Positions 1-31,459 of a DNA stretch of 32,000 nt are shown piece after piece. Both the position numbers and the translations under genes were made by a program. The notes below the pieces were generated by a model, which saw nothing but the letters and a program-made list of their open reading frames with translations, was not told the origin of the DNA and did no database searches. Within the stretch, counting starts at the first letter, position 1. Each line of letters opens with the position of its first letter. Source of the stretch: Horticoccus luteus (GTDB taxonomy: Bacteria > Verrucomicrobiota > Verrucomicrobiia > Opitutales > Opitutaceae); NCBI RefSeq assembly GCF_019464535.1, contig NZ_CP080507.1:4110001-4142000 (forward strand), written 5' to 3'.

Positions 1-85
1 GATGCACGAGCGAGTCGAGCCCCTCCGGCAGTTTTTCCAGGCGGCGCGTTTCCGTGCGCCGCACTTCTTCCATCGGCAGCGGCAT
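1..85 (-). CDS. hypothetical protein, N-terminal fragment (gene runs off the left edge)
   Basis: Reverse-strand ATG at 85 (plus-strand CAT 83-85), 3 nt after the stop of the upstream gene (plus-strand CTA 89-91). My translation MPLPMEEVRRTETRRLEKLPEGLDSLVH stays open to the window edge. Too short for the ORF track or for a functional call. The spacing suggests the same operon as the two genes upstream. Confidence 0.3.
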   Translation of the reverse strand, partial: MPLPMEEVRRTETRRLEKLPEGLDSLVH

Positions 86-88
86 CGG

Positions 89-2266
89 CTAAAGCTGGTA
101 GTGAGATTGCAACAACTGCCGGAAGTCCCGGCCCCATTGCACGAGCAGCGGCGACCACGGCAGATCGAAGCGGATCACGCCCGTTCGCCCGTGCCACACC
201 ACGTGGCCCTCTTTCGCCGCCGCCCCGGTCGGCGCCGGCACGCGCGCCACGACGAGAAAGAAAGGTTCGGCCGACCGCAGGCCGCGCGGATCGTCCATGC
301 GCACGCGCACCGCGCCACCCGTCGCCCAGCCCAACGCCGGCGAAGGCAGCACGTCCTGCCGGCCCGGCACCACGCGCCAGTCGGTCACGCGCAAATCCCG
401 CCCGGAAGAGCCTTGGAAACGCACCTCCGCGCCATGCAGGTGTCCGCCGAACAAATCGCCCGCGAAGTCCTGCGGCACGACCGCGTAAAAATCCCACAAC
501 GGCCCGTCGCCGACGAGCTCGCCCACCATCGTCCCGCGCGCCATCCACGTGCCCAGCATGTCATCGCTGTGGGCGGAAACCCATTCGCCCGTCACCGGCG
601 CGCGAAAATCCAGTTGCTCCTGATCGTGCTCGAGCTGCGCCAGCAACATCTCCACCGATTCGCGCCGCTTCTTCATCGGTGCAATCCCCGCAGCCAATTC
701 CGTCAGCATCTGCCGCTCCCGCGCGGCCGCTTGTTCCAGATTTGCGCGCGCCGACGCGATCGACAGCGCCAGTTCAGGGTTCTGCAACGTGACCAACGGC
801 GCGCCTTGCTGTACGCTGGTTCCGCTGGGCACCGCAAAGGATTCCGCCCAGCCGTCGACCGGCGTGAGCACTGTCATCGAGCCCGCGGCCCGCACCACCC
901 CCGCTGCACGAAAATGCCGCGGAAACGGCACCACCCCCAACAAAATCACAATGACCGCGAGGGCGCCGAACGTCACACCCCACGCCCGTTTGCGCACCCG
1001 CTGGATGCGCGGCTCCCGCGTCAGGTAACGCAGCCCGCCGACGACCGGCATCACAAACGCACCGATGAACGTCACCACACCCGCGAGCAGCCCGATGCCG
1101 AAGTAGCGATCCGCCACGAGCAGGATGATCGAGACCGTGATGAGAATGCGATAAACCCAGCTCGCCACGCCGTAAATCGACAGCCACACCGCTTCCTTCC
1201 GGCTGCGCGCCGGGCTCTCGGTGAATTTGCCGCCAAACGCATATTTCTCGATCATGTGCAGCCACTGGCGCGCCGCCCGCGGCTGCAAATTCGGCGAGTC
1301 GGTCAGATCCGCGAGAATATAATAGCCGTCAAAGCGCAGCAGCGGATTGATATTGAAAATCACCGTGGAGACCGACGCCACGATCATGACGTTATACGCG
1401 AGACTGTTGAGCAGCCCGGCGCCGGTGTTGGCCCAGACGAGCGCCGCGATGCTCGCGAAAAACAACTCCGGGATCATGCCCGCGCAGCCCACCATCACGC
1501 GTTTCCACCGCTCGCGAAAGGCCCAGGCGGCCGTCGCGTCCACATACGGAATCGGCGTGAACACCAGCAGGGTCACACCCATCGCGTGCACCTCGCCCCC
1601 GAATTTTTTCACCGCAAACGCGTGACCGAATTCGTGCACCAGCTTCGCCATCGCGAAGCCGAGATACAACAGGAGGAGGTTGCCCGGTTCGAGAATGCTC
1701 TGCGTCTGGTCCTGCGCCTGATCCCAGTGGTTGATGACCGCCGACAGCCCCAGCCCCACCATCACGATCCACAGCAACCCCGCGCCCGGCGTGCAAAGCC
1801 ATTTCACCACCGGCCACAAGCGCCGCAGAATCGGCTCCGGATCGAGCAGGCGGATACGCAAAAAGAAGATGCCGAAAATCTGTGACTTGATCTCCTGCTG
1901 CACCCGCTTCTGGTGCCGTTGAAACAATTGCGCCGTGTCCGCCGGCACATCCGACGCGATCAGGTTGGATTGATACAACTGCGCCAGCATCGAGACGATC
2001 TCGCCCTGGCCCGGCGCGCGGTCGCCATCCCGCTCGAGACAGCCGACCCAGATTTCCTCGATCGTGCGCGTGCCGTCGAGGCGCGCCACAAACTGGTAGG
2101 CCTCCGGCCGGAAACGAAAAAACTGATTCGTGAAACCATCCTGTGCGATGTGCCACGTCTCGCCGCGAAACACCTGTTTCCGAATCGTCACCGACGGCCG
2201 CAGCCGCAGCCGCTGCCCGGCCACCCGATGCCACGACTCGCTGAATAACGCCCGCTGCTCGCTCAT
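89..2266 (-). CDS. fusion protein: PqqD/RRE-like N-terminal domain + peptidase M50 (site-2 protease family) membrane domain + C-terminal HlyD-type periplasmic adaptor domain (725 aa)
   Basis: ORF track 89..2266(-). The HEFGH zinc motif is encoded at 1622-1636 and the second S2P motif NINPLLRFDGYY at about 1328-1354. Several hydrophobic segments are present (e.g. GLLWIVMVGLGLSAVI, GVTLLVFTPIPY, WGVTFGALAVIVILLGVVPF). After the last TM comes a barrel-sandwich/coiled-coil pattern (VLTPVDGWAESFAVPSGTSVQQGAPLVTL ... LEQAAARERQMLTELA ... LDFRAPVTGEWV) typical of HlyD-family MFPs. The N-terminal about 110 aa resembles PqqD (FVARLDGTRTIEEIW...GEIVSMLAQLYQSNLI). Confidence 0.85.
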   Translation of the reverse strand: MSEQRALFSESWHRVAGQRLRLRPSVTIRKQVFRGETWHIAQDGFTNQFFRFRPEAYQFVARLDGTRTIEEIWVGCLERDGDRAPGQGEIVSMLAQLYQSNLIASDVPADTAQLFQRHQKRVQQEIKSQIFGIFFLRIRLLDPEPILRRLWPVVKWLCTPGAGLLWIVMVGLGLSAVINHWDQAQDQTQSILEPGNLLLLYLGFAMAKLVHEFGHAFAVKKFGGEVHAMGVTLLVFTPIPYVDATAAWAFRERWKRVMVGCAGMIPELFFASIAALVWANTGAGLLNSLAYNVMIVASVSTVIFNINPLLRFDGYYILADLTDSPNLQPRAARQWLHMIEKYAFGGKFTESPARSRKEAVWLSIYGVASWVYRILITVSIILLVADRYFGIGLLAGVVTFIGAFVMPVVGGLRYLTREPRIQRVRKRAWGVTFGALAVIVILLGVVPFPRHFRAAGVVRAAGSMTVLTPVDGWAESFAVPSGTSVQQGAPLVTLQNPELALSIASARANLEQAAARERQMLTELAAGIAPMKKRRESVEMLLAQLEHDQEQLDFRAPVTGEWVSAHSDDMLGTWMARGTMVGELVGDGPLWDFYAVVPQDFAGDLFGGHLHGAEVRFQGSSGRDLRVTDWRVVPGRQDVLPSPALGWATGGAVRVRMDDPRGLRSAEPFFLVVARVPAPTGAAAKEGHVVWHGRTGVIRFDLPWSPLLVQWGRDFRQLLQSHYQL

Positions 2267-2276
2267 GGTCGTGCGC

Positions 2277-4109
2277 TCACCACCACAGCTTGAGCCGCAG
2301 GAAATCGACCAACCGGTGCGTCGCCATCCACAGCAGACTGCGGTGGCCGGCCTCGATCTTGGCCACGCCGCTCATCCCCGGCCGGAACCAGTCCGCCCGA
2401 TGGTCCAGCAGCCCATGCACGAGAAAGAAATTTCCATCCCGGTCCGGCATCGCCGACGGCTCGATGCGATCGATCGTCACCTTGAACGTGTCCTCAGGCC
2501 GGCTCGCAAACGCGATGTCCGCCGTGTGGCTGTTCTGGATCTGGTCGATGTCTTTTTCCACCACCCGCATCTCGACGTAGAGCCCCTTCAGTTGGGAAAC
2601 CTTCAGCAGGATGTCGCCGGTCTTCACCGGCGCGCCGATTTTTTCGCGCAAATCGCCTTCGACGACCACGCCGTCAAACGGCGCCCGCATTTCCGCCCGC
2701 GAAAGCCGGTAACGCACCAGGTCAACCCGCGCCTGCGATTCCGCCTGCTGCGCCCGCGCCACGCGCAACTCCGAAAGCTGCCGGTCCGCCTCCGCCTTGT
2801 CGGCTTCGCTCGCGTGCCTCTGCAACTCCGCCTGCGCCGCCGCGAGCTGCACCAGGAGGTCGCTCGTATCCAGTTTCACCAGCACATCGCCCTGCTTCAC
2901 CAGATCACCCGGCCGCACATCGACTTCCGCGAGATAACCTTCGAAGGGCGCCGGCAGATGCAGCAGCGCGTCAGCCCGCACGATGAACGTACCGTCGACG
3001 CGATACGGGAACGGCACGAACACCGCGATCGCGAGCAACACCGCCCCGGCGATCGCGCCCACTTTGATCCACGTCTGTTTCGGCCCGAGAAAGCCTGCGC
3101 ACCACGTGCGAAAGGCCACCGCCCAGCGCGCCCCAAACCACCGGTCCTGCTTCCGCAATTCATCGAGACGCCGCGACACTTGGTCCGCGATCACCCGCAA
3201 CGCCAGCGCATCATATTCGCCAAAAGCCGTCTCGCTGCGCTCGAGCGTCAACACACCCCGCGCCTCGCCTTCCACGCGCACCGGCACCGACAACAAAAAC
3301 GGCACGCGCTCCGCCTCCGCGTAAGCGGCATGATCGCGGGTGATCGCCGTGCTCTCGCTCAGCGCCGGCCAGACGATCTCCTCATCCTGATCGCGCGCTT
3401 CCTCCATGGCCGCCTCCAATCGCTGCACGATCGTCATGCGCTTCTCGAAACGGTCCGTGCCGCTGATCGCCTGCACCCGCACGTAGGCGCCGTCCGTCCA
3501 GCCCAACGCCACCCGCGTCGAGTGGAAACGCGCCGCCAGTTCGTTCACCAGCGACATCGCCACCGCGAGGAAACGCGTATGCGCATTTGTCGCCGCCAAA
3601 ATTTCCAGCGCCTGCGCAAAGTGCTCCACCTCGCGCTTCGTCTTCTCCAGCAACCGCTGCCGCTGATAAAGCAACGGCGTATCCGACGCGAGCCGCAGCA
3701 GCGAACCCGCCGCGACGATCTCGTCGCGCGACGTCCGCGCCAGCGCCACCGCCAGTAAACACGTTTCACCGCCGTCGCCCGTGGACAGCGTCACCAACAG
3801 CAATCCCAACCCGCCGGTCGCATTCGTCGCCGCCGCCGCCAGCCCCTCGGCGAGCGCGCGTTCCGCCAGCGGTCCAAACACCGGACCCGCCAAAGGCAGC
3901 GGAAACTCCCGCGCCGTCGGCCAGCCCGCGGCCAGTCGCCACCCCTCGCCCACGCGCACCACGACAGCCGCCGCGGGCGCCTGCACCAGTTCCGCACAAG
4001 TCTGCGCAAAACGAGGCCAGAATTCCTTGGGGGACCCTTCAAACAGGCGGCACGCTTCGAGCCGGGCCACGGCTTCGGCAGGGGTCGCAAACGGGGAAGT
4101 GTTGTTCAT
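2277..4109 (-). CDS. tandem GAF-like cytoplasmic sensor domains + single TM + HlyD-family periplasmic adaptor (610 aa)
   Basis: ORF track 2277..4109(-). A GAF-like region lies at about aa 160-320 (FLAVAMSLVNELAARFHSTRVALGW...VPVRVEGEARGVLTLERS) and a weaker GAF-like region at the N-terminus. TM segment IKVGAIAGAVLLAIAVFVPF. This is followed by an MFP pattern (APFEGYLAEVDVRPGDLVKQGDVLVKLD, a long coiled coil, MRAPFDGVVVEGDL, LYVEMRVVEKDI). The stop is 10 nt before the start of the M50 fusion gene. Confidence 0.85.
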   Translation of the reverse strand: MNNTSPFATPAEAVARLEACRLFEGSPKEFWPRFAQTCAELVQAPAAAVVVRVGEGWRLAAGWPTAREFPLPLAGPVFGPLAERALAEGLAAAATNATGGLGLLLVTLSTGDGGETCLLAVALARTSRDEIVAAGSLLRLASDTPLLYQRQRLLEKTKREVEHFAQALEILAATNAHTRFLAVAMSLVNELAARFHSTRVALGWTDGAYVRVQAISGTDRFEKRMTIVQRLEAAMEEARDQDEEIVWPALSESTAITRDHAAYAEAERVPFLLSVPVRVEGEARGVLTLERSETAFGEYDALALRVIADQVSRRLDELRKQDRWFGARWAVAFRTWCAGFLGPKQTWIKVGAIAGAVLLAIAVFVPFPYRVDGTFIVRADALLHLPAPFEGYLAEVDVRPGDLVKQGDVLVKLDTSDLLVQLAAAQAELQRHASEADKAEADRQLSELRVARAQQAESQARVDLVRYRLSRAEMRAPFDGVVVEGDLREKIGAPVKTGDILLKVSQLKGLYVEMRVVEKDIDQIQNSHTADIAFASRPEDTFKVTIDRIEPSAMPDRDGNFFLVHGLLDHRADWFRPGMSGVAKIEAGHRSLLWMATHRLVDFLRLKLWW

Positions 4110-4359
4110 GCGTCCAGGGCATCACGACGCGGGCTCCAGCGGGCTACCCGGCGTGTGAAGGGTAAATGTCATCGCGCCGTTTCGCCGTTTTCCAAGCAAA
4201 AATGCGCGATTCCCCGATGGCGGAACGGCCAGACGCCACTCCATGACCGACTTGCCGAACGATAAATTTTCCAAATCTCCGCCCCTCGGATAATTTCGCG
4301 CTGCGACTGGAATGCCGTTGCCACGAGCCCGGGGCGCGCTCATGCCTCACTGCACGTTC
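4110..4359. promoter_or_regulatory. divergent intergenic/promoter region between the GAF-MFP operon (-) and the lipoprotein/ABC operon (+)
   Basis: A 250-bp non-coding gap between two divergently oriented start codons. It contains the most AT-rich stretches of the first 11 kb (e.g. gataaattttccaaatctcc, ccaagcaaaaatgcg). No specific -35/-10 elements could be assigned by eye. Confidence 0.4.
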
Positions 4360-4782
4360 ATGAGCTTCCCGCTTCTTAAATTGCCCGTGCGCTGCGCCCT
4401 CCTTCCCCTCGCTTTCGTGCTCACAATGTTTGTCGCCGCCTGTGGTGGCGGTGGCGGCGGCGGCGGCACACCGCCCACTCCGCCTCCTCCCGTTCCTGAT
4501 CTCGCTCCCGCCTCGATCGCCAATCACACGATCGTGATTGCCGATCCCGACCAACCCACGGTCACGAGCACCTACGCTTTCAGCGCGTCCACTTACACTT
4601 CCCCCGGCGGCGATAGCGGCACCTACAGCTACGGCAAGGTTGCCGGCACGACGACGCAGGCTCAGCTGCAAATCGCTTCGACGTTCAACCCCGTGCGCAC
4701 TTACACGCTCACGTTCACGTCCTCCGCCGGCGGCACCTACGTTGACCAAGTTGGCAAGCACGGCACGTTCCAGTATCAGTAA
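4360..4782 (+). CDS. small secreted lipoprotein with poly-Gly/Pro linker and about 100-aa Thr/Ser/Tyr-rich beta-type domain (140 aa)
   Basis: In-frame ATG at 4360 within ORF 4312..4782 gives MSFPLLKLPVRCALLPLAFVLTMFVAAC with a good lipobox (VAAC). Next come G8, TPPTPPPPVP and a globular-looking C-terminus. No family recognised. Confidence 0.7.
   Translation: MSFPLLKLPVRCALLPLAFVLTMFVAACGGGGGGGGTPPTPPPPVPDLAPASIANHTIVIADPDQPTVTSTYAFSASTYTSPGGDSGTYSYGKVAGTTTQAQLQIASTFNPVRTYTLTFTSSAGGTYVDQVGKHGTFQYQ
4444..4467 (+). repeat. in-frame (GGY)8 trinucleotide tract, with (GGC)5 perfect at 4453-4467, encoding Gly8 right after the lipidated Cys
   Basis: Read directly from the sequence: tgt ggt ggc ggt ggc ggc ggc ggc ggc aca. 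Confidence 0.9.
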
Positions 4783-6058
4783 ACGCGCGCGCCTCGCGCT
4801 CGCCCTGCTGCTGGCCCTTCCCGTCTCCGGCTGCCTCTCCGTCCGGCGCGAACTCGCGCTCGAACAAACCCGCCAGCACGTGGCGTGGGCCGCCCTCGCC
4901 ACTCCGCCCCGCCGTGAAACCCGCACGTTTTCCTGGGCCGGGGCACTCGCGCAACTCCGCGCCGCCAACCCCAAGATTCGCTCCGCCGAGCTCGATCTGA
5001 TCCGCGCCCGGGAAGCGCGCGAGCAAGTTCGCCGCTCGCTGATTCCCCTCGTGAGCTTGCAAAGCGGATACAACCGCAGCTTCGGCGGCAGCTCCCTCAA
5101 CACCTTCGATCCGTTCTACTTTGCCGCCACCGTCTTCTTCGACGTGCCCGGCTTCATGAACTACCGCACGCGCGCGGAAGCCGCCGAACTCACGCTCACC
5201 CGCGCCGAACTCGGCCGCGAAGCCGTCTGGCGCGAACAGGTCACCTCCCTCTACCGCGCCGCCGCCGCCCAGGAAGATCTCGCCGCCCAACTCGCCCGCC
5301 TGCAACGCCAGCAAGCCCGCGCCCGCGCTCTCGCCCCCGGCGCACCCCGCGCCGCCACCGCCGCCCAGCGCCGCCTCCTCCCGGCCCAAACCCGCCTCGA
5401 CGCCCAACTCGCCGACGCCCGTGAAAAAGTCGCCGATCTTCTCGGCCTGCCTGGCACTCCCATCGTCTTTTCCGGGCCGCTCCCCGACCCCGGCTACGAT
5501 CGCGTGGCCCAACGCCCCGCTCCCGCCCAACTCGCCGGCCTGCCCCTCCGCCTTGCCGCCATCGAACTCGTGGCCTTGCGCGCGCGCCAGCTCGGCGTGC
5601 GCCTGCAGGCCTGGCCCGAAGTAAATTTTTCGGTCAGCACCCCCACGCTCTATCGCCGCACCAATGGCCAGAGCGACTACTGGTCTTCCCACGACACCCT
5701 CGCCGGGGCCAACGCCTTTTGGACGCTCGATACCCGGGGCCGGCAGGCCAGCGAGGGCCGCATCCTCACCGCCGAACTCGCCCTGCGCCGCACCATCCTG
5801 GAGCAGGAAGCTCACCGCGTCGCCGCGCAACTCCACACCGCGCTGGACCAGCTCCAGGTGACCGATCGCGAGTTCGCCGCGCTCAACGCCGCCCTGCCCG
5901 ACGCCCCGGAGCGCCTTCGACCCGACCTCCTCGCGCGCCGTGATGCGCTCGCCGCCGAACGCCGCGAATGGGAAGTGGTGTTGTGGTTTTTCGACGACAC
6001 CCGCTGGACCACCCCCGCTCCCCCGACCACCGTCGCGCTCGCCGCCTCCTCCCGATGA
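4751..6058 (+). CDS. TolC-like outer membrane efflux lipoprotein (OMF), Ala/Arg/Leu-rich and divergent
   Basis: Frame of ORF 4538..6058. I prefer the TTG at 4751 (or 4742), which gives MASTARSSISKRARLALALLLALPVSGC with a lipobox (VSGC). Two OEP-like repeats are visible (AELDLIRAREAREQVRRSLIPLVSLQSGY... and LRLAAIELVALRARQLGVRLQAWPEVNFSV...). The stop overlaps the next start (ATGA at 6055-6058). The start codon is uncertain. Confidence 0.65.
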   Translation: MASTARSSISKRARLALALLLALPVSGCLSVRRELALEQTRQHVAWAALATPPRRETRTFSWAGALAQLRAANPKIRSAELDLIRAREAREQVRRSLIPLVSLQSGYNRSFGGSSLNTFDPFYFAATVFFDVPGFMNYRTRAEAAELTLTRAELGREAVWREQVTSLYRAAAAQEDLAAQLARLQRQQARARALAPGAPRAATAAQRRLLPAQTRLDAQLADAREKVADLLGLPGTPIVFSGPLPDPGYDRVAQRPAPAQLAGLPLRLAAIELVALRARQLGVRLQAWPEVNFSVSTPTLYRRTNGQSDYWSSHDTLAGANAFWTLDTRGRQASEGRILTAELALRRTILEQEAHRVAAQLHTALDQLQVTDREFAALNAALPDAPERLRPDLLARRDALAAERREWEVVLWFFDDTRWTTPAPPTTVALAASSR

Positions 6059-7224
6059 CTCCGCCCCTCTTCCGCGCCGCAGCCATCGCCCTGCTCCTCA
6101 CCGGCGCCGGTTGCACTCGCCCACCCGCGTCGACCCGCCCACCCACCCCCGCCGCCTGGCAATGGCAGGACTTCCCCTCCGCCCAAGAGCTGCTCCTCGC
6201 CGAATTACCCGCCGGCGTGCAACCCGTCCGCCTCGACGTCGTTCACGCGCCGGTGGCCGGTGAACTCATGCTCCTGCCTCCTGCCGCCAACGACGCCACC
6301 CTCCCGGCCAACGCCGCGTGGGCGCGCATCACGATCCCCGGCGCCGCCGACGAAGCGCGCGATCTCGCGGACATGCGCCAGCGCCTCACCGAGCGGCGCG
6401 ATCACTATGCCCGCTTCGAGGTGCCCGCCGCCCTCGCCCGCCTCGACCGCGAAATTGCCGACGCCCAGGAAACCCTTTCGGTCGCCCGCTTCGCCCAGAA
6501 ATCGCCCGACCTCTTCCGCGGCGAAGACGCGCCGCTCGATCCGCAACTGCAGCCTTCGCTCTCACCCGCCCAAGCTGAGGCTCAGCTCCAACGCCTCCGC
6601 GAGCAGCGCGCCCAACTCGCCGCCGGCGATCGTGCTGCCGAACCCGCCGACCTGCTCGCGCTCCAAGCCCAGCTCGACCAACGCGACCGCGCGCTCCGCC
6701 TCCGCGATGAACAATTGACGCTCACCGCGCCGTTCGCCGCGCGCCTCCGCCTCGCGCAACCCGGCGCCTCGCGCCACGTCGAACCCGGCGAAATCATCGC
6801 CACGCTTTCCGATTCTTCCGCCCTCGAAGTGCGCGTCCGCGCGACGCTGCCGCTCCTCCACAGCGTGCCGCCGGAAACACTTCAGGCCGTCGTCACCCTC
6901 CCCGGCGGCATCACCGCGCCGGCGGAATTTGCCGGTAGCACGGTCGAACTGCAGGGGCCCGTCCTCGTCACCATCTTTCGCTTTCAACTAGCCGCCACCC
7001 CGGCGCAGGCCACCGCGGTTCCGACCGCCGGCGTGGAGTTGCCTGTGCTCGTGTTTGCCCGCTTGCCGCACGCCGCCCGCATCGTCCCGAAACTTGCCCT
7101 CGTGCGCTTCGATGCGCACGGCGTCCTGCGCGATGGCTGGCGCGCCGGCCTGCCGCGCTTGCTGCCCGGCACGGAACTGCTCGCCGAAGGCCGCCAGGCG
7201 CTCGCGTTGCAACCCGCGCCCTGA
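6055..7224 (+). CDS. HlyD-family periplasmic adaptor (MFP), probable lipoprotein
   Basis: ATG at 6055 inside ORF 5968..7224 gives MTPPLFRAAAIALLLTGAGC (signal peptide plus Cys). A long coiled-coil region follows (EIADAQETLSVARF...AEAQLQRLREQRAQLAA...LDQRDRALRLRDEQLTLTAPFAARL) and then a beta-barrel-like tail (VEPGEIIATLSDSSALEVRVRATLP). It is translationally coupled to the preceding OMF gene. Confidence 0.7.
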   Translation: MTPPLFRAAAIALLLTGAGCTRPPASTRPPTPAAWQWQDFPSAQELLLAELPAGVQPVRLDVVHAPVAGELMLLPPAANDATLPANAAWARITIPGAADEARDLADMRQRLTERRDHYARFEVPAALARLDREIADAQETLSVARFAQKSPDLFRGEDAPLDPQLQPSLSPAQAEAQLQRLREQRAQLAAGDRAAEPADLLALQAQLDQRDRALRLRDEQLTLTAPFAARLRLAQPGASRHVEPGEIIATLSDSSALEVRVRATLPLLHSVPPETLQAVVTLPGGITAPAEFAGSTVELQGPVLVTIFRFQLAATPAQATAVPTAGVELPVLVFARLPHAARIVPKLALVRFDAHGVLRDGWRAGLPRLLPGTELLAEGRQALALQPAP

Positions 7225-7236
7225 AGTCCGCGCCCG

Positions 7237-7875
7237 ATGTTATTCGCGCTGCGCCACGTTACGTTTGCCTACCGGCGCGGGGCCGCGCCCGTGCTTCACG
7301 ACTTTTCCCAAGACTTCCCCGCCGGCCTCACGATCCTGCGCGGCCCTTCCGGCGGCGGTAAAAGCACCCTGCTGAAATTGCTCGCCGGTTACCTCGCGCC
7401 CGCTGCCGGCACTGTGACCACCCGTCACGGCCGCGCCCCCGACGCCGCTTTCCAGCGCCACGACGTCGGCTTCGTTTTTCAACAGTTCAACCTGCTGCCC
7501 GGCGTCTCGCTGCAACGGAATCTCGAACTCGCCGGCTTGATCGGCGGCGTGCCGCCCGCCGTCCTCGCCGCCCGCGTGCAACACTGGCTCGACCGGATGG
7601 GCTTGCAGCCGTGGTCCGCCACTCGCGTCGAACAGCTGTCCGGCGGGCAGATCCAGCGCGCCGCCCTCGCCCGCGCGCTTGTCAAAGCGCCCGCCGTCCT
7701 CCTCCTCGATGAACCCACGTCCGGTCTCGACGATACCAATACGGCGCTCATCGCGGCGCTCGCGCGCGACTGGCTGGCCGCCGGAAATTCTGTCATCGTC
7801 TCCACTCACGATCCCCGCCTCCCGGCGACGCTCGGCGATGCGACGGCGTTGACCCTCGAACTCCCCGCCGCATGA
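7237..7875 (+). CDS. ABC transporter ATP-binding protein (FtsE/LolD/MacB-type NBD, 212 aa)
   Basis: Walker A GPSGGGKST (7342-7368), Q-loop region FVFQQFNLL, signature LSGGQIQR, Walker B LLLDEPTSGLD, H-loop VSTHD. Confidence 0.9.
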   Translation: MLFALRHVTFAYRRGAAPVLHDFSQDFPAGLTILRGPSGGGKSTLLKLLAGYLAPAAGTVTTRHGRAPDAAFQRHDVGFVFQQFNLLPGVSLQRNLELAGLIGGVPPAVLAARVQHWLDRMGLQPWSATRVEQLSGGQIQRAALARALVKAPAVLLLDEPTSGLDDTNTALIAALARDWLAAGNSVIVSTHDPRLPATLGDATALTLELPAA

Positions 7876-8987
7876 ACGCCACCCCGGCTGTCCTGCGTTA
7901 CCTCGCGCACGAATTGACCACGCGCTGGCGGGCGCAACCCATCTCGCCCTTCGCCCGCTGGCTGCTGACCCTCGTGCTCACCGCAGCCGCCGGAGTTTTC
8001 CTCGCCGGTTTCGCGGCGGCGGAAATGGCCCGCCGCGCGCAGTTGCAACACCTCGGCCTCGACACGCTTGTCGTGCGCGTCCCCGCCCGCTCCGCGCTGG
8101 GCGAAGCGGCGCCGTGGCCGGCCGACAGTTGGGCCGCGCCCCTGAGCCACGAAGGCGAACTCACGTGGCTCCAGCAACTGCCACAGCCTGCGTTCAACCC
8201 TTGGGACCGGCCGCTGCCGGCCTTCGCCGCCGCGTTGCCGACACTCGCCGCCCTCCTCCCGGCGGAAGCACCCGCCGGCCGCGCCGTCTGGTTCACGCGC
8301 AGCCTGCCCGCGGGGCGCGACGTGCGGCTCACGTTCCATAACGTCCCGCTCGTCGCGCGCACCGTCCAGCCCGCCGCGCGCTGGCAGGCCTTGGGCCTCG
8401 ATGAATTCGTCCTCCTGCCGCCCCCCGCGGGCGATGTCACGGGCCGGTTGGACGTCATGCTCTTCACGCCCGACGCCGGCCATTCGCTCGCCGACACCGC
8501 CGCACTCGTGGCTGGATTTTTCACCGCAGAAAACGAACCTCCGCCCGCCGTCCAGGATCCCTCTCCCTACCGCCGGGCGCTCGACGAGCTCGTCGCCCGA
8601 CAGGTGCAGTGGCGCCGCGGCATGCTCGTCGCGCTCGCCGGCTGTATCGCCGCGATGTTTGGGTGTATCGGATTGCTGGAGGAGCGGCAGACGCGCTACG
8701 CCCAGGCGTTGCTGCGCAGTCTGGGCGTTGGCCGCGGTTTGCTGTGGGCCAGCGCGTGGGTCGAAAACCTCCTCCTCGCCAACACAGCGCTGCTCTGCGG
8801 CATCTGGTTGAGCGGCACGCTCGCCGCCCGGCTGCTGGCGGGCGTGAATGTTATCAGCCCAGACGTCATGCCGTTAGCTCCGGCCCAATGGCTCTGGCTT
8901 GCCATCGGTGTAAATACCGGTGTTCTCGCCAGTATTTTTCCCCTGGGTCGGGCACTGCGCCGGCCCGTCGGGCAAGTCCTCCCTTAA
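7872..8987 (+). CDS. ABC transporter permease, FtsX/MacB-type (4 TM with large periplasmic loop)
   Basis: The ATG at 7872 overlaps the NBD stop (ATGA 7872-7875). TM1 is WLLTLVLTAAAGVFLAGFAAA, followed by an extracytoplasmic region of about 200 aa. The C-terminus has an FtsX-like three-TM bundle (MLVALAGCIAAMFGCIGLL...YAQALLRSLGVGRGLLWASAWVENLLLANTALL...WLWLAIGVNTGVLASIFP). Confidence 0.8.
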   Translation: MNATPAVLRYLAHELTTRWRAQPISPFARWLLTLVLTAAAGVFLAGFAAAEMARRAQLQHLGLDTLVVRVPARSALGEAAPWPADSWAAPLSHEGELTWLQQLPQPAFNPWDRPLPAFAAALPTLAALLPAEAPAGRAVWFTRSLPAGRDVRLTFHNVPLVARTVQPAARWQALGLDEFVLLPPPAGDVTGRLDVMLFTPDAGHSLADTAALVAGFFTAENEPPPAVQDPSPYRRALDELVARQVQWRRGMLVALAGCIAAMFGCIGLLEERQTRYAQALLRSLGVGRGLLWASAWVENLLLANTALLCGIWLSGTLAARLLAGVNVISPDVMPLAPAQWLWLAIGVNTGVLASIFPLGRALRRPVGQVLP

Positions 8988-8997
8988 ATTCTCGTTC

Positions 8998-10551
8998 ATG
9001 ACCAAGCTGCTCGTATCCATCAAACGCGCCGGACTCGCCCTAGTGGCCGGCGCGGTCACCCTTCCCGCCCTCGCGCAAACCGCGCCGTTGACCCTGCAGG
9101 ACCTGCTCGTTTCTGCGATCAACAACAATTTGGAATTGCGCGCCAAGCGCCTCGACCCCGAAGCCCAGCGTTACCGCCTCGCCGCCGCATGGGGCGATTT
9201 CGACCCCGCCTTCGTCGCCGGCAGCTACGTGCTCTCCTCCGAGCACCCGCAAAACTACCGCGATTTTCTTGCGACCGGCAGCTCCATCACGATCTACCAG
9301 GAAGAGATCATCCACTATGAAGCGGGCTTCACCGGCAAACTGCCCACCGGCGCCAACTACTCGTTGAACACGTTCGTCGAACGCAACGACAACAGCATCA
9401 ATCGCAAGGCCCCCGTCTTCAACGGCAACCTCACCAACCCCAGCGTCAGCGGCCCCGGCTTTCATCCGGAATACGCCGCCACCGCGGTGTTCTCCCTCAC
9501 GCAGCCCTTGCTCCGCGACTTCGGTCTCAACGCCAACCTCGCCGAAGTGCGCCTCAATAAAAGCGCCCTCGCCACCTCCGAGCAGGAAACGCGCGGCACC
9601 CTCCTGCGCATCATGGCCAACGTCGTCGGCGCCTACTACGAAATGGTCTTCGGCCAGGAAAACATCCGCGTGAAGGAACAGGCCGTCGAACTCGCGCAAA
9701 ACCTCGTGCGCGACAACAAGCGCCGCCTCGACGAGGGCAAAATGTCGCCCCTCGACGTCACGCAGGCCCAAGGCCGCCTCGCCGAAGCCCGCGAAGAACT
9801 TCTCCTCGCCCAAAATTTCCTCGCCCAACGCCGCAATACCTTGCGCGAACTCACCCGCGAAAATTTCGATTCCGAAGACGGTGACTGGACCGTCGACAAC
9901 ACCTTCCTCCGTCGCGATCTGCCCGAACTCGACCGCAATCGCCTTCTCCCGGCGATGTTCGAAAACAACCCCGTTTACCTCGCCAACGTCGAAGCGGCGC
10001 GCGCCAGCGACATCCGCCTCACCTACGCGAAAAATCAGCGCTGGCCCCGCGTCGACCTCAAGGCCTCCCTCAGCTACAACGGCCTCGCCGGCGACTGGAG
10101 CCCCGCCTACACCGACTTCGATCAACGCACCGGCCCGGATTGGAACGTCGGTTTCGTCGTCAACATCCCGCTCACCAACCGCGTCGGCCGCGCCCGCTAC
10201 TCCGAGGCGAAGACCCGCAAGATGCAGGCCCTCATCACCGTCAAGCGCACGGAAGTCCAGCTCCTCAGCGCCTTCGATTCGGCGATGCGCGACCTCGCCT
10301 CCGCCCGTGAACGCATGAAACTCGTGCGCGACTCCGTCACTCTGGCCGACTCCGCGCTCACCGCCGAAGAGAAGCGCCTGGCATCCGGCGTCACCACCAG
10401 TTACAACGTCGCCACCGCCCAGCGCGATATGAGCCAGGCGCATTCCCGCGAACTCGCCACGCTCGTCGATCTCAACAAAGCCTACGCCCAGCTCTACGCC
10501 CTCGTCGGCACGCTGCCCCAGCAGTTGAAAGTGGACGTGAAGTCGGAATAA
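8998..10551 (+). CDS. TolC-family outer membrane efflux protein (517 aa)
   Basis: ATG at 8998 inside ORF 8920..10551 gives MTKLLVSIKRAGLALVAGAVTLPALAQ (signal peptide). A canonical OEP start follows (LTLQDLLVSAINNNLELRAKRLDPEAQ). The protein has two OEP repeats with the usual coiled-coil heptads. Confidence 0.9.
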   Translation: MTKLLVSIKRAGLALVAGAVTLPALAQTAPLTLQDLLVSAINNNLELRAKRLDPEAQRYRLAAAWGDFDPAFVAGSYVLSSEHPQNYRDFLATGSSITIYQEEIIHYEAGFTGKLPTGANYSLNTFVERNDNSINRKAPVFNGNLTNPSVSGPGFHPEYAATAVFSLTQPLLRDFGLNANLAEVRLNKSALATSEQETRGTLLRIMANVVGAYYEMVFGQENIRVKEQAVELAQNLVRDNKRRLDEGKMSPLDVTQAQGRLAEAREELLLAQNFLAQRRNTLRELTRENFDSEDGDWTVDNTFLRRDLPELDRNRLLPAMFENNPVYLANVEAARASDIRLTYAKNQRWPRVDLKASLSYNGLAGDWSPAYTDFDQRTGPDWNVGFVVNIPLTNRVGRARYSEAKTRKMQALITVKRTEVQLLSAFDSAMRDLASARERMKLVRDSVTLADSALTAEEKRLASGVTTSYNVATAQRDMSQAHSRELATLVDLNKAYAQLYALVGTLPQQLKVDVKSE

Positions 10552-10565
10552 CGCGCTCCCTCCCC

Positions 10566-11291
10566 ATGAAAAGCCTCTGCCTCACCCTCTTGTTCGCCGC
10601 CGGCGCCGCGATCGTTTCCGCCGCGCCCAAGGCATTTGATGCCGTCATCCTTCCCTACAAGGAGGTGGTCGTCAGTTCCCCGGTCCAAAGCTCCATCACC
10701 GCCATCTTCGTGAAGGAAGGCGATGTCGTCACGCTCGGCCAGCCGCTCGCCCAACTCTACAACAAGATGGAGGAGCTCGATATGAACCGCACCAAAGCGG
10801 CGCTCGAAAAGAAGGAATTCGACTTCAAAGGCTCCAAAAATCTCTACGCCGATAAGATCATCAGCGAAGACGAGGCGCTGAAAAACCGCATCGAACTCGA
10901 GCTCGCCAAACTGCAATTCGACATGGCGTCCGAAGTGCACCATCAGCGCGAAATCGTCGCCCCGATCGCCGGCATCGTCGTCGAGAAACTCCGCGAAGTC
11001 GGTGAGGCCGTGCAGGCCTCGCAACCGATGTTCCGCCTCGTCGACATCAGCCGCGTCTACGTGCAATTCTACGTGCGCGCCGAAGATCTCGCCGCCCTCA
11101 AAGTCGGCGATGAAATGGACGTCCGCTGCCCCGTCGTCGATCCCACCGGCACGTTCGTCGGCAAAGTGGATTTCATCGACCCGCGCGTCGATGCCGCCAG
11201 CGGCCTCATGCGCGTGAAAGTGATTCTGCCCAACGCCGACGGCCGCATCAAAGCCGGTCTGCGCGCCGAAGTTTCCCGCCACGCGGAGTAA
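10566..11291 (+). CDS. short periplasmic adaptor (HlyD/RND-MFP family, 241 aa), cleavable signal peptide and no membrane anchor
   Basis: Signal peptide MKSLCLTLLFAAGAAIVSA/AP. Lipoyl-like half-motifs (SSITAIFVKEGDVVTLGQPLAQL ... IVAPIAGIVVEKLREVGEAV). A short alpha-hairpin. Beta-barrel segment (VYVQFYVRAEDLAALKVGDEMDVR ... MRVKVILPNADGRIKAGLRAEV). Confidence 0.8.
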   Translation: MKSLCLTLLFAAGAAIVSAAPKAFDAVILPYKEVVVSSPVQSSITAIFVKEGDVVTLGQPLAQLYNKMEELDMNRTKAALEKKEFDFKGSKNLYADKIISEDEALKNRIELELAKLQFDMASEVHHQREIVAPIAGIVVEKLREVGEAVQASQPMFRLVDISRVYVQFYVRAEDLAALKVGDEMDVRCPVVDPTGTFVGKVDFIDPRVDAASGLMRVKVILPNADGRIKAGLRAEVSRHAE

Positions 11292-11315: not shown

Positions 11316-11343
11316 AGCGTGCCTCAACCGGCACGCTTTTTTT
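11316..11343 (+). terminator. rho-independent terminator ending the 4360-11291 operon
   Basis: AGCGTGCC (11316-11323), loop tcaacc, GGCACGCT (11330-11337), then a T-run through 11343. It lies 25 nt after the stop of the short MFP gene. Confidence 0.75.
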
Positions 11344-11377
11344 GTGCCCCGCGGCAGGCGGCGGCAAGACCGTCATA

Positions 11378-11400
11378 CCGGGTCGCGGCCCGCGACCCGG
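11378..11400. repeat. perfect 23-bp palindrome CCGGGTCGCGG-C-CCGCGACCCGG
   Basis: Read directly from the sequence. It has 11-nt arms around one central base and lies 108 bp upstream of the cytochrome c start codon, just downstream of the terminator. Confidence 0.6.
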
Positions 11401-11507
11401 TCGCACGCACCTTCGCCTGCATCCACGTCCGCGCCCAGCGGGGACAATTTGCAGCGTTGCCGGAGAGCGACAACCCGCTCTTCCTCCTCAGCTTCACCCC
11501 TGCACGT

Positions 11508-12488
11508 ATGTTCTCCAAGTTGCTCAAAATCCTCGCTGCGCTTCTCGGCTTGGCCGTCCTCGTGGTCGCCGGCGTCCTCTGTTACCTCAAGTTCGCGCTG
11601 CCGAAGGCTGCGCCGGCACCCGCCCTCGTCATTCACGCCACGCCCGAATTGATCGCGCGCGGTCGCTACTTGGCGAATCACGTCGCCGTCTGCATCGATT
11701 GCCACTCGGAGCGCGACTGGTCGCGCTTCTCCGCCCCGCTGGTGCCCGGCACCGAAGGCCGCGGCGGCGAGTCGTTCGATCACCGGTTCGGTTTTCCGGG
11801 CGCGTTCACCGCCAAAAACATCACGCCCGCCAGCGTCGGCGCGTGGACCGATGGCGAACTCTACCGCGCCATCACCACGGGCGTCAGCCGTGATGGCCAT
11901 GCGCTGTTCCCGATCATGCCTTATCTGAATTACGGTCACATGGCCGACGAGGACGTCCGGGCCATCATCGCCTACATCCGCACCCTCGCCCCCATCAATC
12001 ACGCGGTGCCGCCGTCGCGCGCCGACTTTCCGGTTAATTTTTTGGTTAACACGATGCCCGCGCCCGCTGCGCCGCAGCCGTTGCCCGATCCGGCCGACAC
12101 CGTCGCGCAAGGCCGCTACCTCGTCACCGTCGCCGGCTGCGCGATGTGCCACACGCGCGAAGAACACGGCAAGCCCGTGGGCGCGCGGCTCGCCGGCGGT
12201 TTTGCCTTCGATGTCGGCCAAGGCCACATCGTCCGCTCCGCCAACCTCACGCCCGATGACACCGGCATCAAAGCCATGACGCGCGGCGAATTCATCGCGC
12301 GTTTCCAACACTATCGCGATCCAACCAACCTGGGCCCCGTGGACATGGCGAAGGGCGGCTTTCAAACCGTCATGCCGTGGAGCATGTTTGCCGGGATGAC
12401 CGACGCCGACCTCGGTGCCATTTACGACTACCTGCGCACGGTCCCCCCCGTGCCAAACGTCGTCGAGCGCTGGTCCACCGCCCACTAA
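11508..12488 (+). CDS. membrane-anchored diheme c-type cytochrome (326 aa)
   Basis: ATG at 11508 inside ORF 11319..12488 gives MFSKLLKILAALLGLAVLVVAGVLCYL (N-terminal anchor). Two CxxCH motifs are present: CIDCH at 11691-11705 and CAMCH at 12138-12152. Each is followed by a Met-Pro ligand context (FPIMPY, TVMPW). Confidence 0.85.
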   Translation: MFSKLLKILAALLGLAVLVVAGVLCYLKFALPKAAPAPALVIHATPELIARGRYLANHVAVCIDCHSERDWSRFSAPLVPGTEGRGGESFDHRFGFPGAFTAKNITPASVGAWTDGELYRAITTGVSRDGHALFPIMPYLNYGHMADEDVRAIIAYIRTLAPINHAVPPSRADFPVNFLVNTMPAPAAPQPLPDPADTVAQGRYLVTVAGCAMCHTREEHGKPVGARLAGGFAFDVGQGHIVRSANLTPDDTGIKAMTRGEFIARFQHYRDPTNLGPVDMAKGGFQTVMPWSMFAGMTDADLGAIYDYLRTVPPVPNVVERWSTAH

Positions 12489-25798: not shown

Positions 25799-27487
25799 TC
25801 AGGGCTGGTTGCTGAACAGATAATGGTCCCGCGTTTCGCCGAGCAAATGATAACGAAACGCCGGCTCCGCCAAGAGCGGGCCGAGATCCTTCTTGCGCGC
25901 CACCACCCACAGCCGCGCCGGTCCGGCCCACGCGCGGTGAAACTCCGCGTCGTCGATGAAGCGCCCGCTGTCTCGCGCTGCTGGGTCTTCTTCCAGTTCC
26001 AACTCTCCCTTGAACGCCACGAGACCCACGGTCTGCCGCGCGTAGAACGTGAAGTCGTGAAAAAATTCGTGGTAATGCAGCACGCGATCCCCCGGTTTCG
26101 CCTCCGCCCGCACCTGCAACGCCAGTTCCTTCGTGCCCGGTCGCTGAATGTGCGGCGCCGCATAAGTCAGCACACCGAGGAAAAACACCATCGTCACCGC
26201 GATCGTGGCCACCGCCGAACGGCCGCCCCGCGTTTTCGCCCGCCACGGCGCGAGCACGCCCCCCAACATCAGCACCGCCGCCATCGTGATCGCGAACGGC
26301 CGCAGCACCTGCGCCTGCGCCGGATCGCGGATGATTCCCGGCTTGAGCACCACGACCACCAACGCCACCGCCAGCAGCCCCGCCACAAACGAAAACGTCC
26401 GCACACCGGCGCTCAACCGCCCCGCACCCGCCCGCCAGGCCGCCGTCACGCCTACGCCGGCCAACACCGCCAACGCCGGAAAAATCGGCAGGATGTACGG
26501 CACAAGCTTCGAATGTGATTTCGTGAAAAACAGAAAGATAAACGCCGCCCACGTCACAAGAAACCACGCGTCGACGTTGGCCTTGCGGGCCGCCCAACCG
26601 CCGCGCAACGCCTCCCGCGCCCCGCTCCACACAAAGCCCGTCCATGGAAACAGGCCGAAGAAAATGATCGGCACGAAATACCACACCGGCCCCGGCCGGC
26701 TCGCGACGGGCGACATGAACCGCTCCCAGTGTTCATAAACGAAATACCGCTGCGCCCACGTCGGGTTGTGCAGATGTGCCAGCACGTGCCACGGCACGGC
26801 GATCGCGAGAAACACCAGGGCGCCCGTCGGCAGGTGCAGCGGACGCAGCCGCTTCCATTGGTTGAACACCAGCAGCCACAAAAACATCACCGCGCCCGTG
26901 ACGAGGAAGCCCATCAAGCCCTTCGTCAGCGTCGCCAAGGCCATGCTCGCATACACGCCATACATCAGCCAACGCCGCCGCCCGCCCGGCGGCGCCCGCA
27001 TCGCCAGCACGAAGCAAAACAGCGCCGCGCTCATGAGCACCGACACCGCCATATCGAGCAGGATGATCCGCCCGAGCGCGAAGAAGAGCAGCGAAGTCCC
27101 CAGCGCCACGCCCGCCGCCACACCCGCCGCGCGGCCATACAACGCGCGCCCCGCCGCGTAGGTGAGCAACACGCCCGCGAGCGCAAATAGCGCCGGCACC
27201 GCGCGCACCGCCCACTCGTTCAACCCGAAAACTCGCTCGCTCGCCGCCGTCACCCAATACACCAGCGGCGGCTTTTCGAAATAGTTCACGCCGTCGAGCC
27301 GCGGCGTCACCCAGTCGCCGGTCGCCAGCATCTCCCGCGGAATCTCCGCGTAACGTCCCTCGTCCGGGTTCCCCAACGGATAACTGCCGAGCCGAAAGCC
27401 GAACAGCGCGGCAAACAGCAATGCGAGCAGCATGAGGTCGCGCGTCCACGACACACGATCCGGGGCAACGTCAGGCGAGGAAACCAT
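25799..27487 (-). CDS. arnT: undecaprenyl phosphate-alpha-L-Ara4N transferase-like glycosyltransferase (GT83/PMT_2 family, 562 aa)
   Basis: ORF track 25799..27487(-). The N-terminal motif NPDEGRYAEIPREMLATGDWVTPRLDGVNYFEKPPLVYW is typical of ArnT/PMT-type lipid-linked sugar transferases. About 12 TMs. The stop codon (25799-25801) is 1 nt from the arnB start. Confidence 0.8.
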   Translation of the reverse strand: MVSSPDVAPDRVSWTRDLMLLALLFAALFGFRLGSYPLGNPDEGRYAEIPREMLATGDWVTPRLDGVNYFEKPPLVYWVTAASERVFGLNEWAVRAVPALFALAGVLLTYAAGRALYGRAAGVAAGVALGTSLLFFALGRIILLDMAVSVLMSAALFCFVLAMRAPPGGRRRWLMYGVYASMALATLTKGLMGFLVTGAVMFLWLLVFNQWKRLRPLHLPTGALVFLAIAVPWHVLAHLHNPTWAQRYFVYEHWERFMSPVASRPGPVWYFVPIIFFGLFPWTGFVWSGAREALRGGWAARKANVDAWFLVTWAAFIFLFFTKSHSKLVPYILPIFPALAVLAGVGVTAAWRAGAGRLSAGVRTFSFVAGLLAVALVVVVLKPGIIRDPAQAQVLRPFAITMAAVLMLGGVLAPWRAKTRGGRSAVATIAVTMVFFLGVLTYAAPHIQRPGTKELALQVRAEAKPGDRVLHYHEFFHDFTFYARQTVGLVAFKGELELEEDPAARDSGRFIDDAEFHRAWAGPARLWVVARKKDLGPLLAEPAFRYHLLGETRDHYLFSNQP

Positions 27488-31379: not shown

Positions 31380-31414
31380 GGGTGGGAAAACGCGCGCCAC
31401 CGCACGCGAAACGC

Positions 31415-31459
31415 GCCACCGGTGCAAGCGCCATGCGCGTGCACCGGTGGCACTTTTTT
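31415..31459. terminator. strong hairpin (11-bp stem) between the rnk-like gene and GH78; orientation ambiguous
   Basis: GCCACCGGTGC (31415-31425), 15-nt loop, GCACCGGTGGC (31441-31451). The T6 run (31454-31459) follows the stem on the PLUS strand and overlaps the rnk-like stop codon. On the minus strand, where both neighbours are coded, only GTTTCG follows the stem. Confidence 0.45.

Follow-up and report, generated by a model that had tools for sequence, protein, structure and literature searches.

A PqqD-like recognition domain on an M50 protease-HlyD fusion protein and its possible part in the export of giant LEPR-XLL proteins

What does a peptide-recognition domain do on a membrane protease that is itself fused to a secretion adaptor? 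The question is raised by a 32,000-nucleotide stretch of the Horticoccus luteus genome (contig NZ_CP080507.1, positions 4,110,001 to 4,142,000; G+C about 65%), here called the window, in which an open reading frame (ORF) of 725 amino acids lies on the minus strand at 89..2266. The closest homologues of this protein are found in the Opitutaceae (Verrucomicrobiota). A preliminary description, made from the letters of the sequence, had placed at the N-terminus of this M50-HlyD fusion protein a PqqD-like recognition element (RRE) of the kind used by the pathways of peptides that are made on the ribosome and modified after translation (RiPPs), and had read the protein as a leader peptidase and exporter for such a peptide. 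Here we report that the domain, as judged from family-level matches and predicted structure, is a PqqD-like RRE, and that its gene belongs to a secretion cassette which is repeatedly flanked by genes for giant proteins with a common N-terminal LEPR-XLL leader. We consider it moderately probable that the RRE captures the LEPR-XLL leader of giant secreted or surface proteins for processing by the M50 protease and export driven by a SecA-like ATPase.

The N-terminal domain was modeled with AlphaFold2 (AF2). The model of residues 1-130, built with 18 homologues in the alignment, had a mean predicted local distance difference test score (pLDDT) of 82.8, with strands at residues 19-22, 26-33, 36-43 and 49-52, helices at residues 54-61, 69-80 and 87-99, and a short strand at residues 103-105. 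The full-length model (pLDDT 84.3) showed the same topology of the N-domain, and both contained the three-stranded antiparallel sheet and three helices of the PqqD/RRE winged helix. One detail of the preliminary description needs correction: the L-D-G motif is not part of a helix but of the turn that connects helices 1 and 2. The comparison with known RRE folds that the preliminary description had called for gave RREs as the top Foldseek matches in the PDB, namely LynD (4v1u), TbiB1 (5v1u/5v1v) and TfuB1 (6jx3), with TM-scores on the target of 0.61-0.66 and probabilities of 0.94-0.99, followed by the RREs of CteB (5wgg) and MibB (5ehk). The peptide originally quoted for the domain corresponds to residues 20-108 of the ORF and the interval given for it (1952-2134) takes in residues 45-105 only; the folded domain extends over about residues 17-106.

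Among 57 diverse N-domains of homologues (34-51% identical to the query), 45 matched the Pfam family PqqD (PF05402) at E<=10 and 27 at E<=1e-3 (best 7.9e-9), and PqqD was the only Pfam family that reached E<=1e-3. The nine most recurrent NCBIfam families in the same set were all PqqD/RRE types (PqqD, ScmD, daptide_HExxH, lasso PqqD, ApyI, PRK02079, which is a second PqqD model, PqqD_rel_X, HvfC and WgkC). When 1.84 billion representative proteins were searched with HMMER, the N-domain turned up in 1,832 clusters at 50% identity, and among the best 150 matches listed the domain was N-terminal in nearly all, mostly in proteins of about 715-740 residues. The PqqD domain is already in the database annotation for orthologues, many of which RefSeq names ‘PqqD family protein’ or ‘PqqD family peptide modification chaperone’. 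When PDB sequences were searched with a profile of the deeper family alignment (A2), PqqD (5sxy) came first, with a non-significant E-value of 0.15 and in the same register as the alignment to PqqD drawn in the preliminary description. Because the copy in the window falls below the Pfam threshold while its homologues match, its membership in PqqD rests on transitive homology. On the matches of its family and the predicted structure the N-domain is a PqqD-like RRE, and the likeness is real homology and not chance. The last strand of the sheet and helix 3 bear six residues conserved in the family (R51, P85, Q87, E89, L94 and L97), and from the topology this would be the canonical leader-binding side of an RRE. 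The segment in front of the fold (residues 1-16) is specific to the family; W12 is invariant in alignments A1-A3, and F8 is invariant in A1 and A2 and almost so in A3. This segment is helical in the AF2 model of the domain and of low confidence in the full-length model.

The fusion of the RRE to an M50 protease and an HlyD part held up as well. The residues H211, E212, H215, N305, N307, P308, L309 and D313 are shared by all 25 diverse full-length sequences that were aligned. The protein has an intact HExxH and an N-x-x-P-x-x-x-x-D-G-type motif of the third zinc ligand (NPLLRFD in the window protein), which M50 proteases carry in one transmembrane (TM) helix and in a later one. The Pfam family Peptidase_M50 (PF02163) matched the window protein at E=5.2e-5 with 23.1 bits, short of the gathering threshold of 27.2, and a precomputed PF02163 match is carried by most homologues. 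The NCBIfam model daptide_HExxH (NF041824) matched residues 21-410 over profile positions 2-368 at E=7.9e-53, with a score of 180 that is below the equivalog cutoff of 300, and the YydH/LiaK model (NF058609) matched residues 185-335 at E=5.6e-9, with a score of 36 against a cutoff of 225. Hydropathy and positive-inside analysis gave about seven TM helices with the N-terminus inside and the C-terminus outside, the loop before the last TM helix being very basic. Since the N-terminus is predicted to be inside, the RRE would be cytoplasmic, and the C-terminal part of about 275 residues is predicted to be periplasmic. Foldseek matched this C-terminal part to MacA (3fpp, E=3e-12) and also to MexA, AcrA and ZneB, and Pfam gave a weak, sub-threshold match to HlyD_D23. 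The fold is that of a membrane-fusion protein, a class built of lipoyl and beta-barrel domains with an alpha-helical hairpin, and the hairpin lies at residues 497-550 of the AF2 model (helices 497-523 and 525-550). The best explanation of the models and motifs is a single inner-membrane protein in three parts, in which a cytoplasmic RRE would be the head that selects the substrate, followed by an M50 metalloprotease with 7 TM helices and by an HlyD-type adaptor in the periplasm.

The gene for this protein is part of a cassette that also encodes a TolC-like channel (OEP), a short HlyD protein, a GAF-HlyD protein and a SecA-like ATPase, and the window carries the gene set of the locus described by Kamneva, Poudel and Ward in 2015 (PMC4452313). 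When a single genome of each GTDB species was scanned with the full-length alignment, the RRE-M50-HlyD protein was found in at least 558 species, which belong to the Verrucomicrobiota, Planctomycetota, beta-, gamma- and delta-proteobacteria, Nitrospirota, Desulfobacterota, Spirochaetota, Fibrobacter, Bacteroidota and Methylomirabilia. We analyzed 82 related loci (83 with the window) with flanks of up to 10 kb. In 63 of 70 loci the next gene downstream of the M50 gene is the SecA-like gene, in 63 of 70 the next gene upstream is that for GAF-HlyD, and a short HlyD protein (about 240-330 residues) and a TolC-like OEP usually make up the rest of the cassette. In the window the SecA-like gene runs off the left edge; the translation of its 5’ end, MEEVRRTETRRLEKLPEGLDSLVH, matches the N-termini of SecA-like proteins on an 82%-identical contig (L003) and on L001, L084 and L085. 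The full gene on related contigs encodes SecA_DEAD, SecA_PP_bind and P-loop_SecA domains, and a domain search of the SecA-like protein of these contigs found no match to the wing/scaffold.

RefSeq labels the SecA-like ATPase of the cassette variously as ‘prepilin peptidase’, ‘DEAD/DEAH box helicase’, ‘translocase’ or ‘hypothetical protein’ (for example, the genes at 17213-19129 of L207 and 17133-19118 of L206 have inconsistent names), so that keyword searches miss it. In proteobacterial, planctomycete and Nitrospira cassettes a DUF3467 protein of about 95-115 residues is encoded between the giant gene and the GAF-HlyD gene (12857-13138 of L206, 12735-13055 of L207, and 14 GTDB loci, such as 6823-7119 of L059), and it was not detected by tblastn in the window or in the verrucomicrobial loci. 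A role of DUF3467 as a chaperone for a giant substrate would fit this position.

All-versus-all clustering of the 9,359 ORFs from the 83 loci revealed no conserved short ORF and no conserved tailoring enzyme, and only the five cassette genes recurred, together with their antisense shadows. The window has no short precursor gene and no modifying enzyme near the RRE, as a RiPP cluster would, and neither the window nor the 82 related loci show the daptide context of ELExMEAP/C-terminal Thr precursors with MpaB, MpaC, MpaD or MpaM. That no small ORF and no tailoring family is conserved speaks against a RiPP cluster, and that reading was rejected on the clustering of the 83 loci. The preliminary description had further pointed to the left of the window as the place to look for RiPP genes. 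Because the left edge holds the start of the SecA-like gene, this direction leads to a motor protein and not to RiPP genes.

What recurs beside the cassette are genes for giant proteins of 4,000-19,000 amino acids. ORFs of at least 1000 amino acids, mostly truncated by the 10-kb flank, were found in the flanks of 34 of the 82 loci, and in Actomonas aquatica the SecA-like gene is followed by a gene for 18,972 amino acids. Where the N-terminus is visible, it bears a leader motif such as FELEALEPRVLLSADL; this was seen at the N-terminus of an ORF in 17 of the 82 GTDB loci, against 0 in a reversed-sequence control, and all six N-termini tested passed the NCBIfam model ‘LEPR-XLL domain’ (NF012209). 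In 109 unique leaders, a basic N-region (net charge +2.4) is followed by the consensus F-x-[LVF]-E-x-L-E-P-R-[LVI]-L-L-S-A-D-P, in which the positions within the search pattern are biased by the retrieval method, and the median distance between the first Met and the motif is 36 residues. In the reciprocal test, 120 metagenome stretches were picked by LEPRxLLSADP alone; the motif stood nearly always at the start of a long ORF, and 14 of the 120 stretches also have M50-HlyD, SecA-like or GAF-HlyD genes, where by our rough estimate fewer than one would be expected by chance.

The same association is seen on five alphaproteobacterial plasmids in RefSeq. The operon opens with a gene for 4,000-12,700 amino acids and continues with DUF3467 (4 of 5), GAF-HlyD, PqqD/M50-HlyD, the SecA-like gene (4 of 5) and, where present, the short HlyD and TolC genes. 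All five giants have the motif: two are named LEPR-XLL by the Prokaryotic Genome Annotation Pipeline (PGAP), two more have it at the annotated N-terminus, and in the fifth it lies upstream of a mis-called start. On L084, which is 69% identical and the closest relative with the exact synteny of the window, a gene for an 11,992-residue giant with the motif FVIEELEMRLLLSATP follows the short HlyD gene.

For some giant genes PGAP and other gene callers place the start at an internal Met, which hides the LEPR-type leader. Thus FVIEELEMRLLLSATP (395-640 of L084, minus strand) and the leader VVEQLEPRLLLAAD (225-330 of L216, minus strand; about 183225-183330 of NZ_CP123586.1) both lie in frame upstream of the called start. 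On the same Alisedimentitalea plasmid a gene for a ‘SapC family protein’ (558-1355 of L216; 183557-184354 of NZ_CP123586.1) stands beside the giant gene; the Chlorobium giant gene Cag_663 is likewise preceded by a sapC homologue (2026 preprint), and sapC may be a further recurrent accessory. Short LEPRxLLSADP ORFs of 64-144 amino acids that are closed by a stop codon occur on the metagenome loci L092, L104, L110, L117/L160/L178, L123, L138 and L156; they may be giant genes interrupted by a frameshift, or small substrates that truly carry a leader.

How the parts might work together can be outlined as follows. The RRE-M50-HlyD, GAF-HlyD and short HlyD proteins, the TolC-like channel and the wingless SecA-like ATPase would form one envelope-spanning exporter. 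The RRE would bind the leader as an added beta-strand and bring it to the M50 active site, which we propose faces the cytoplasmic leaflet, where the leader would be clipped or held. The SecA-like ATPase would then feed the polypeptide, N-terminus first, into a conduit that TolC and the three kinds of HlyD adaptor would form. With the signal at the N-terminus, export could start before a chain of 10,000-36,000 residues is complete. Put more broadly, a RiPP-type RRE may have been taken over for a task other than the making of natural products, as signal receptor in a distinct and widespread giant-protein secretion pathway, with the LEPR-XLL leader read by the RRE and removed or held by the M50 protease, and with a wingless SecA-like ATPase driving N-terminus-first, possibly co-translational export through the three-adaptor/TolC conduit. 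We put this wider proposal forward tentatively, as one that stops a little short of being probable.

Several observations weigh against the capture of LEPR-XLL leaders by the RRE. No ORF with the LEPR motif was found by the motif scan of the window, and the cognate giant gene, if present, would lie outside it. In the reciprocal test, 106 of the 120 motif-bearing stretches had no core cassette gene, although many of them are short contigs. Site-2 proteases normally cut membrane-embedded helices, and the LEPR leader has no hydrophobic run of TM length. No obvious protein-conducting channel was identified among the components. The evidence on the domain itself is also uneven: the Foldseek E-values for RREs are weak (0.03-0.6, at least 0.028, none below 0.001), the N-domain of the window protein has no Pfam match, and its sole NCBIfam match, to TIGR03859 PqqD, is marginal (E=0.026-0.032). 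Searches of PDB sequences with this N-domain alone or with a profile of the shallow alignment A1 gave only spurious matches to D-amino-acid oxidase. Taken by themselves, these searches, together with the non-significant rank of 5sxy in the A2 search, would allow the view that the likeness to PqqD is due to chance and that the N-terminal region is an unrelated soluble domain. We find this view hardly credible, since nearly half of the 57 homologous N-domains match PqqD at a level that no other Pfam family reaches, the most recurrent NCBIfam families are all RRE types, and both the topology of the models and the first-ranking structural matches are those of RREs; the family-level matches and the RRE neighbours in Foldseek effectively refute a chance similarity.

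Given a genuine RRE, the readings differ in its ligand. The preliminary description had favoured a small RiPP whose precursor and tailoring genes lie outside the window. Recruitment of the protease to a leader-bearing substrate is reasonable, because an RRE is fused to an M50 protease with intact motifs and daptides provide a precedent, and this part of the earlier reading is supported; the part that invoked a small RiPP with missing modifying enzymes is not. The RRE fold is typical of RiPP pathways, the closest characterized relatives are RiPP proteases (daptide MpaP and YydH/LiaK), and the short ORFs with the LEPR motif on metagenome contigs make small substrates possible. Nevertheless, a leader peptidase and exporter for a small RiPP is quite improbable: no short ORF and no radical-SAM, YcaO, lanthipeptide or other tailoring gene is conserved in the 82 related loci, the invariant partners are secretion components and a SecA-like ATPase with a preprotein-binding domain, the recurrent neighbours encode giant LEPR-XLL proteins, and the daptide model scores 180 against its cutoff of 300. 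It is rather unlikely, too, that the ligand is neither a RiPP leader nor LEPR-XLL and that the RRE serves instead to dock a partner (the SecA-like ATPase, GAF-HlyD or DUF3467), to auto-inhibit the protease or to recognize another class of secreted protein. Such a role would agree with a window that has no LEPR gene and with the position of most LEPR-motif loci away from a cassette; the GAF sensor domain in a partner suggests a regulated assembly, and RRE-like winged helices do occur in non-RiPP proteins, with Rv2067c and NO66 among the Foldseek matches. On the other hand, the conserved residues cluster on the last strand and helix 3, where RREs usually have their peptide groove, the leader motif resembles known RRE ligands in length and character, and the genomic association with LEPR giants, seen in both directions, greatly exceeds chance. 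The LEPR-XLL leader is the ligand that we favour.

The features of the RRE-M50-HlyD gene and of the cassette genes in the window are collected in Table 1.

Table 1. Positions of the RRE-M50-HlyD domains and motifs and of the other cassette genes in the window
Feature	Position (nt)	Strand	Basis or remark
Family-specific N-terminal segment, residues 1-16, F-S-E-S-W-H-R-V	2219..2266	-	Alignments
PqqD-like RRE winged-helix domain, residues ~17-106	1949..2218	-	AF2 models, Foldseek, Pfam matches of the family
Basic linker helix between RRE and membrane domain, residues ~110-131	1874..1939	-	AF2 helix 111-131, pLDDT 61-69
M50/site-2-protease-type membrane domain, residues ~144-448, ~7 TM	923..1837	-	Pfam, NCBIfam, motifs, hydropathy
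HExxH, residues 211-215	1622-1636	-	H211-E-F-G-H215
N-x-N-P-L-L-R-F-D, residues 305-313	1328-1354	-	N305-I-N-P-L-L-R-F-D313-G
C-terminal HlyD/MacA-like domain (predicted periplasmic), residues ~449-725 and stop codon	89..922	-	Foldseek, weak Pfam HlyD_D23
5’ end of SecA-like ATPase gene, MEEVRRTETRRLEKLPEGLDSLVH, running off the window	1..73	-	About the first 24 codons; alternative start at 85
GAF-domain membrane-fusion protein, 610 aa, directly upstream	2277..4109	-	Pfam GAF, HlyD_D23, HlyD_3
TolC-like OEP, orthologue of the cassette OEP	8920..10551	+	Pfam OEP E=8e-47; tblastn 439 bits to the OEP heading the Actomonas L001 cassette
Short HlyD-type adaptor, 241 aa, orthologue of the short membrane-fusion protein of the cassette	10566..11291	+	Pfam HlyD_D23 E=4.7e-25; tblastn match in most loci

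In the lineage of the window the OEP gene has been relocated, and together with the short HlyD gene it now closes a divergent operon (4312-11291, plus strand). This operon encodes a 156-residue ORF that is lipoprotein-like by eye and belongs to no Pfam family, a weak OEP-like and a weak HlyD-like protein, an ATP-binding cassette (ABC) ATPase, a permease-like ORF of 371 residues, the TolC-like OEP and the 241-residue HlyD protein. The 371-residue ORF has no Pfam match, and its homologue on L085 has a weak match to FtsX. The order of the operon is the same on L003, L084 and L085, which suggests that an extra ABC-type module is tied to the cassette in Opitutaceae. A gene for an unrelated cytochrome c protein (11319-12488, by Pfam) follows the short HlyD gene of the window. 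Farther away lie further unrelated genes assigned by Pfam, for an ArnT/PMT-type glycosyltransferase (25799-27487) and a 1,088-residue alpha-L-rhamnosidase (28161-31427), and the region of about 21.6-27.5 kb resembles, by eye, an Arn-type cluster for the aminoarabinose modification of lipid A. The GC skew is negative in every 2-kb step (-0.04 to -0.23), which gives a steady fall of the cumulative skew and agrees with a single replichore for the whole window.

Giant proteins with the same leader have been noted elsewhere. In Chlorobium chlorochromatii, Cag_663 and Cag_665 (36,806 and 20,647 amino acids) have an N-terminal LEPRxLL and ‘lack known signals’, and a recently acquired secA, Cag_1676, is co-expressed with both (2026 preprint). 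One Chlorobi genome is listed with the cassette by Kamneva et al. (PMC4452313), and Cag_1676 is a candidate for a cassette ATPase. Giants of the Omnitrophota carry fused wingless SecA_DEAD and preprotein-binding domains. In the literature we found only passing mentions of LEPR-XLL, in two papers, and no paper that joins the RRE, the M50-HlyD/SecA-like cassette and LEPR-XLL, and the link of the cassette to LEPR-XLL giants appears new and testable. A leader-peptide receptor on the central protein of the cassette and a shared N-terminal tag on the neighbouring giants make a testable receptor-signal pair, which bears on how bacteria export proteins of 5,000-36,000 residues. If the proposal is true, the LEPR-XLL pathway would serve giants that can reach tens of thousands of residues, among them the largest ORFs known from bacteria, the RRE concept would be broadened beyond RiPP biosynthesis, and RRE-guided genome mining would have to class this family, with its 1,832 clusters, as non-RiPP.

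Among known systems, the daptides were discovered from fusions in which an RRE domain precedes an intramembrane site-2 protease, and the RRE was proposed to guide leader removal (PMC10028931). Like daptide MpaP/DapP (NF041824), with which it aligns from the N-domain through the protease core, the window protein has an N-terminal RRE and an intramembrane M50 protease, and 15 of the 57 isolated N-domains of its family match the daptide model. Unlike MpaP, it has an extra last TM helix and an HlyD/membrane-fusion domain of about 275 residues, it is encoded in a SecA-like/TolC cassette, its loci have no MpaB, MpaC, MpaD or MpaM and no short precursors nearby, and it stays below the daptide cutoff (180 against 300). 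The M50 proteases of epipeptide pathways, YydH/EpeP/LiaK (NF058609), share the M50 core, but the match is limited to that core, lacks the RRE and HlyD parts and is below cutoff; the Joint Genome Institute label of the RRE-M50-HlyD family, ‘putative peptide zinc metalloprotease protein’, is derived from yydH. PqqD, the lasso B1 proteins TbiB1 and TfuB1, LynD and CteB share the three-strand, three-helix winged helix and are the best structural neighbours. The copy in the window differs from them in falling below the Pfam threshold, in having the extra conserved F-S-E-S-W segment and in residing on a membrane protease-adaptor, and where their ligand is a RiPP precursor, its likely ligand would be a giant protein's leader.

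The ‘secondary SecA_DEAD / type-I-secretion-like’ locus of Kamneva et al. was described bioinformatically, with a role called ‘completely unknown’, and it matches the present cassette in its GAF-HlyD, Peptidase_M50/HlyD, SecA_DEAD, HlyD/biotin-lipoyl and sometimes OEP genes and in the same phyla; that paper mentions no PqqD/RRE, names no substrate and draws no link to giant proteins or LEPR-XLL (PMC4452313). The cassette itself was already described, and the RRE-M50-HlyD protein represents the known RRE-M50 fusion in a new architecture. In its manner of working, the closest analogy is with the C39-peptidase ABC exporters of peptides with double-glycine leaders and with the C39-like domain of HlyB in repeats-in-toxin (RTX) type I secretion, in which a cytoplasmic recognition module sits on an inner-membrane exporter that operates with an ATPase, HlyD and TolC. 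The parts are all unrelated, with a C39 fold in place of the RRE, a cysteine protease in place of M50 and an ABC motor in place of the SecA-like ATPase. Compared with these exporters, the signal of the system considered here would be N-terminal, on proteins of thousands of residues.

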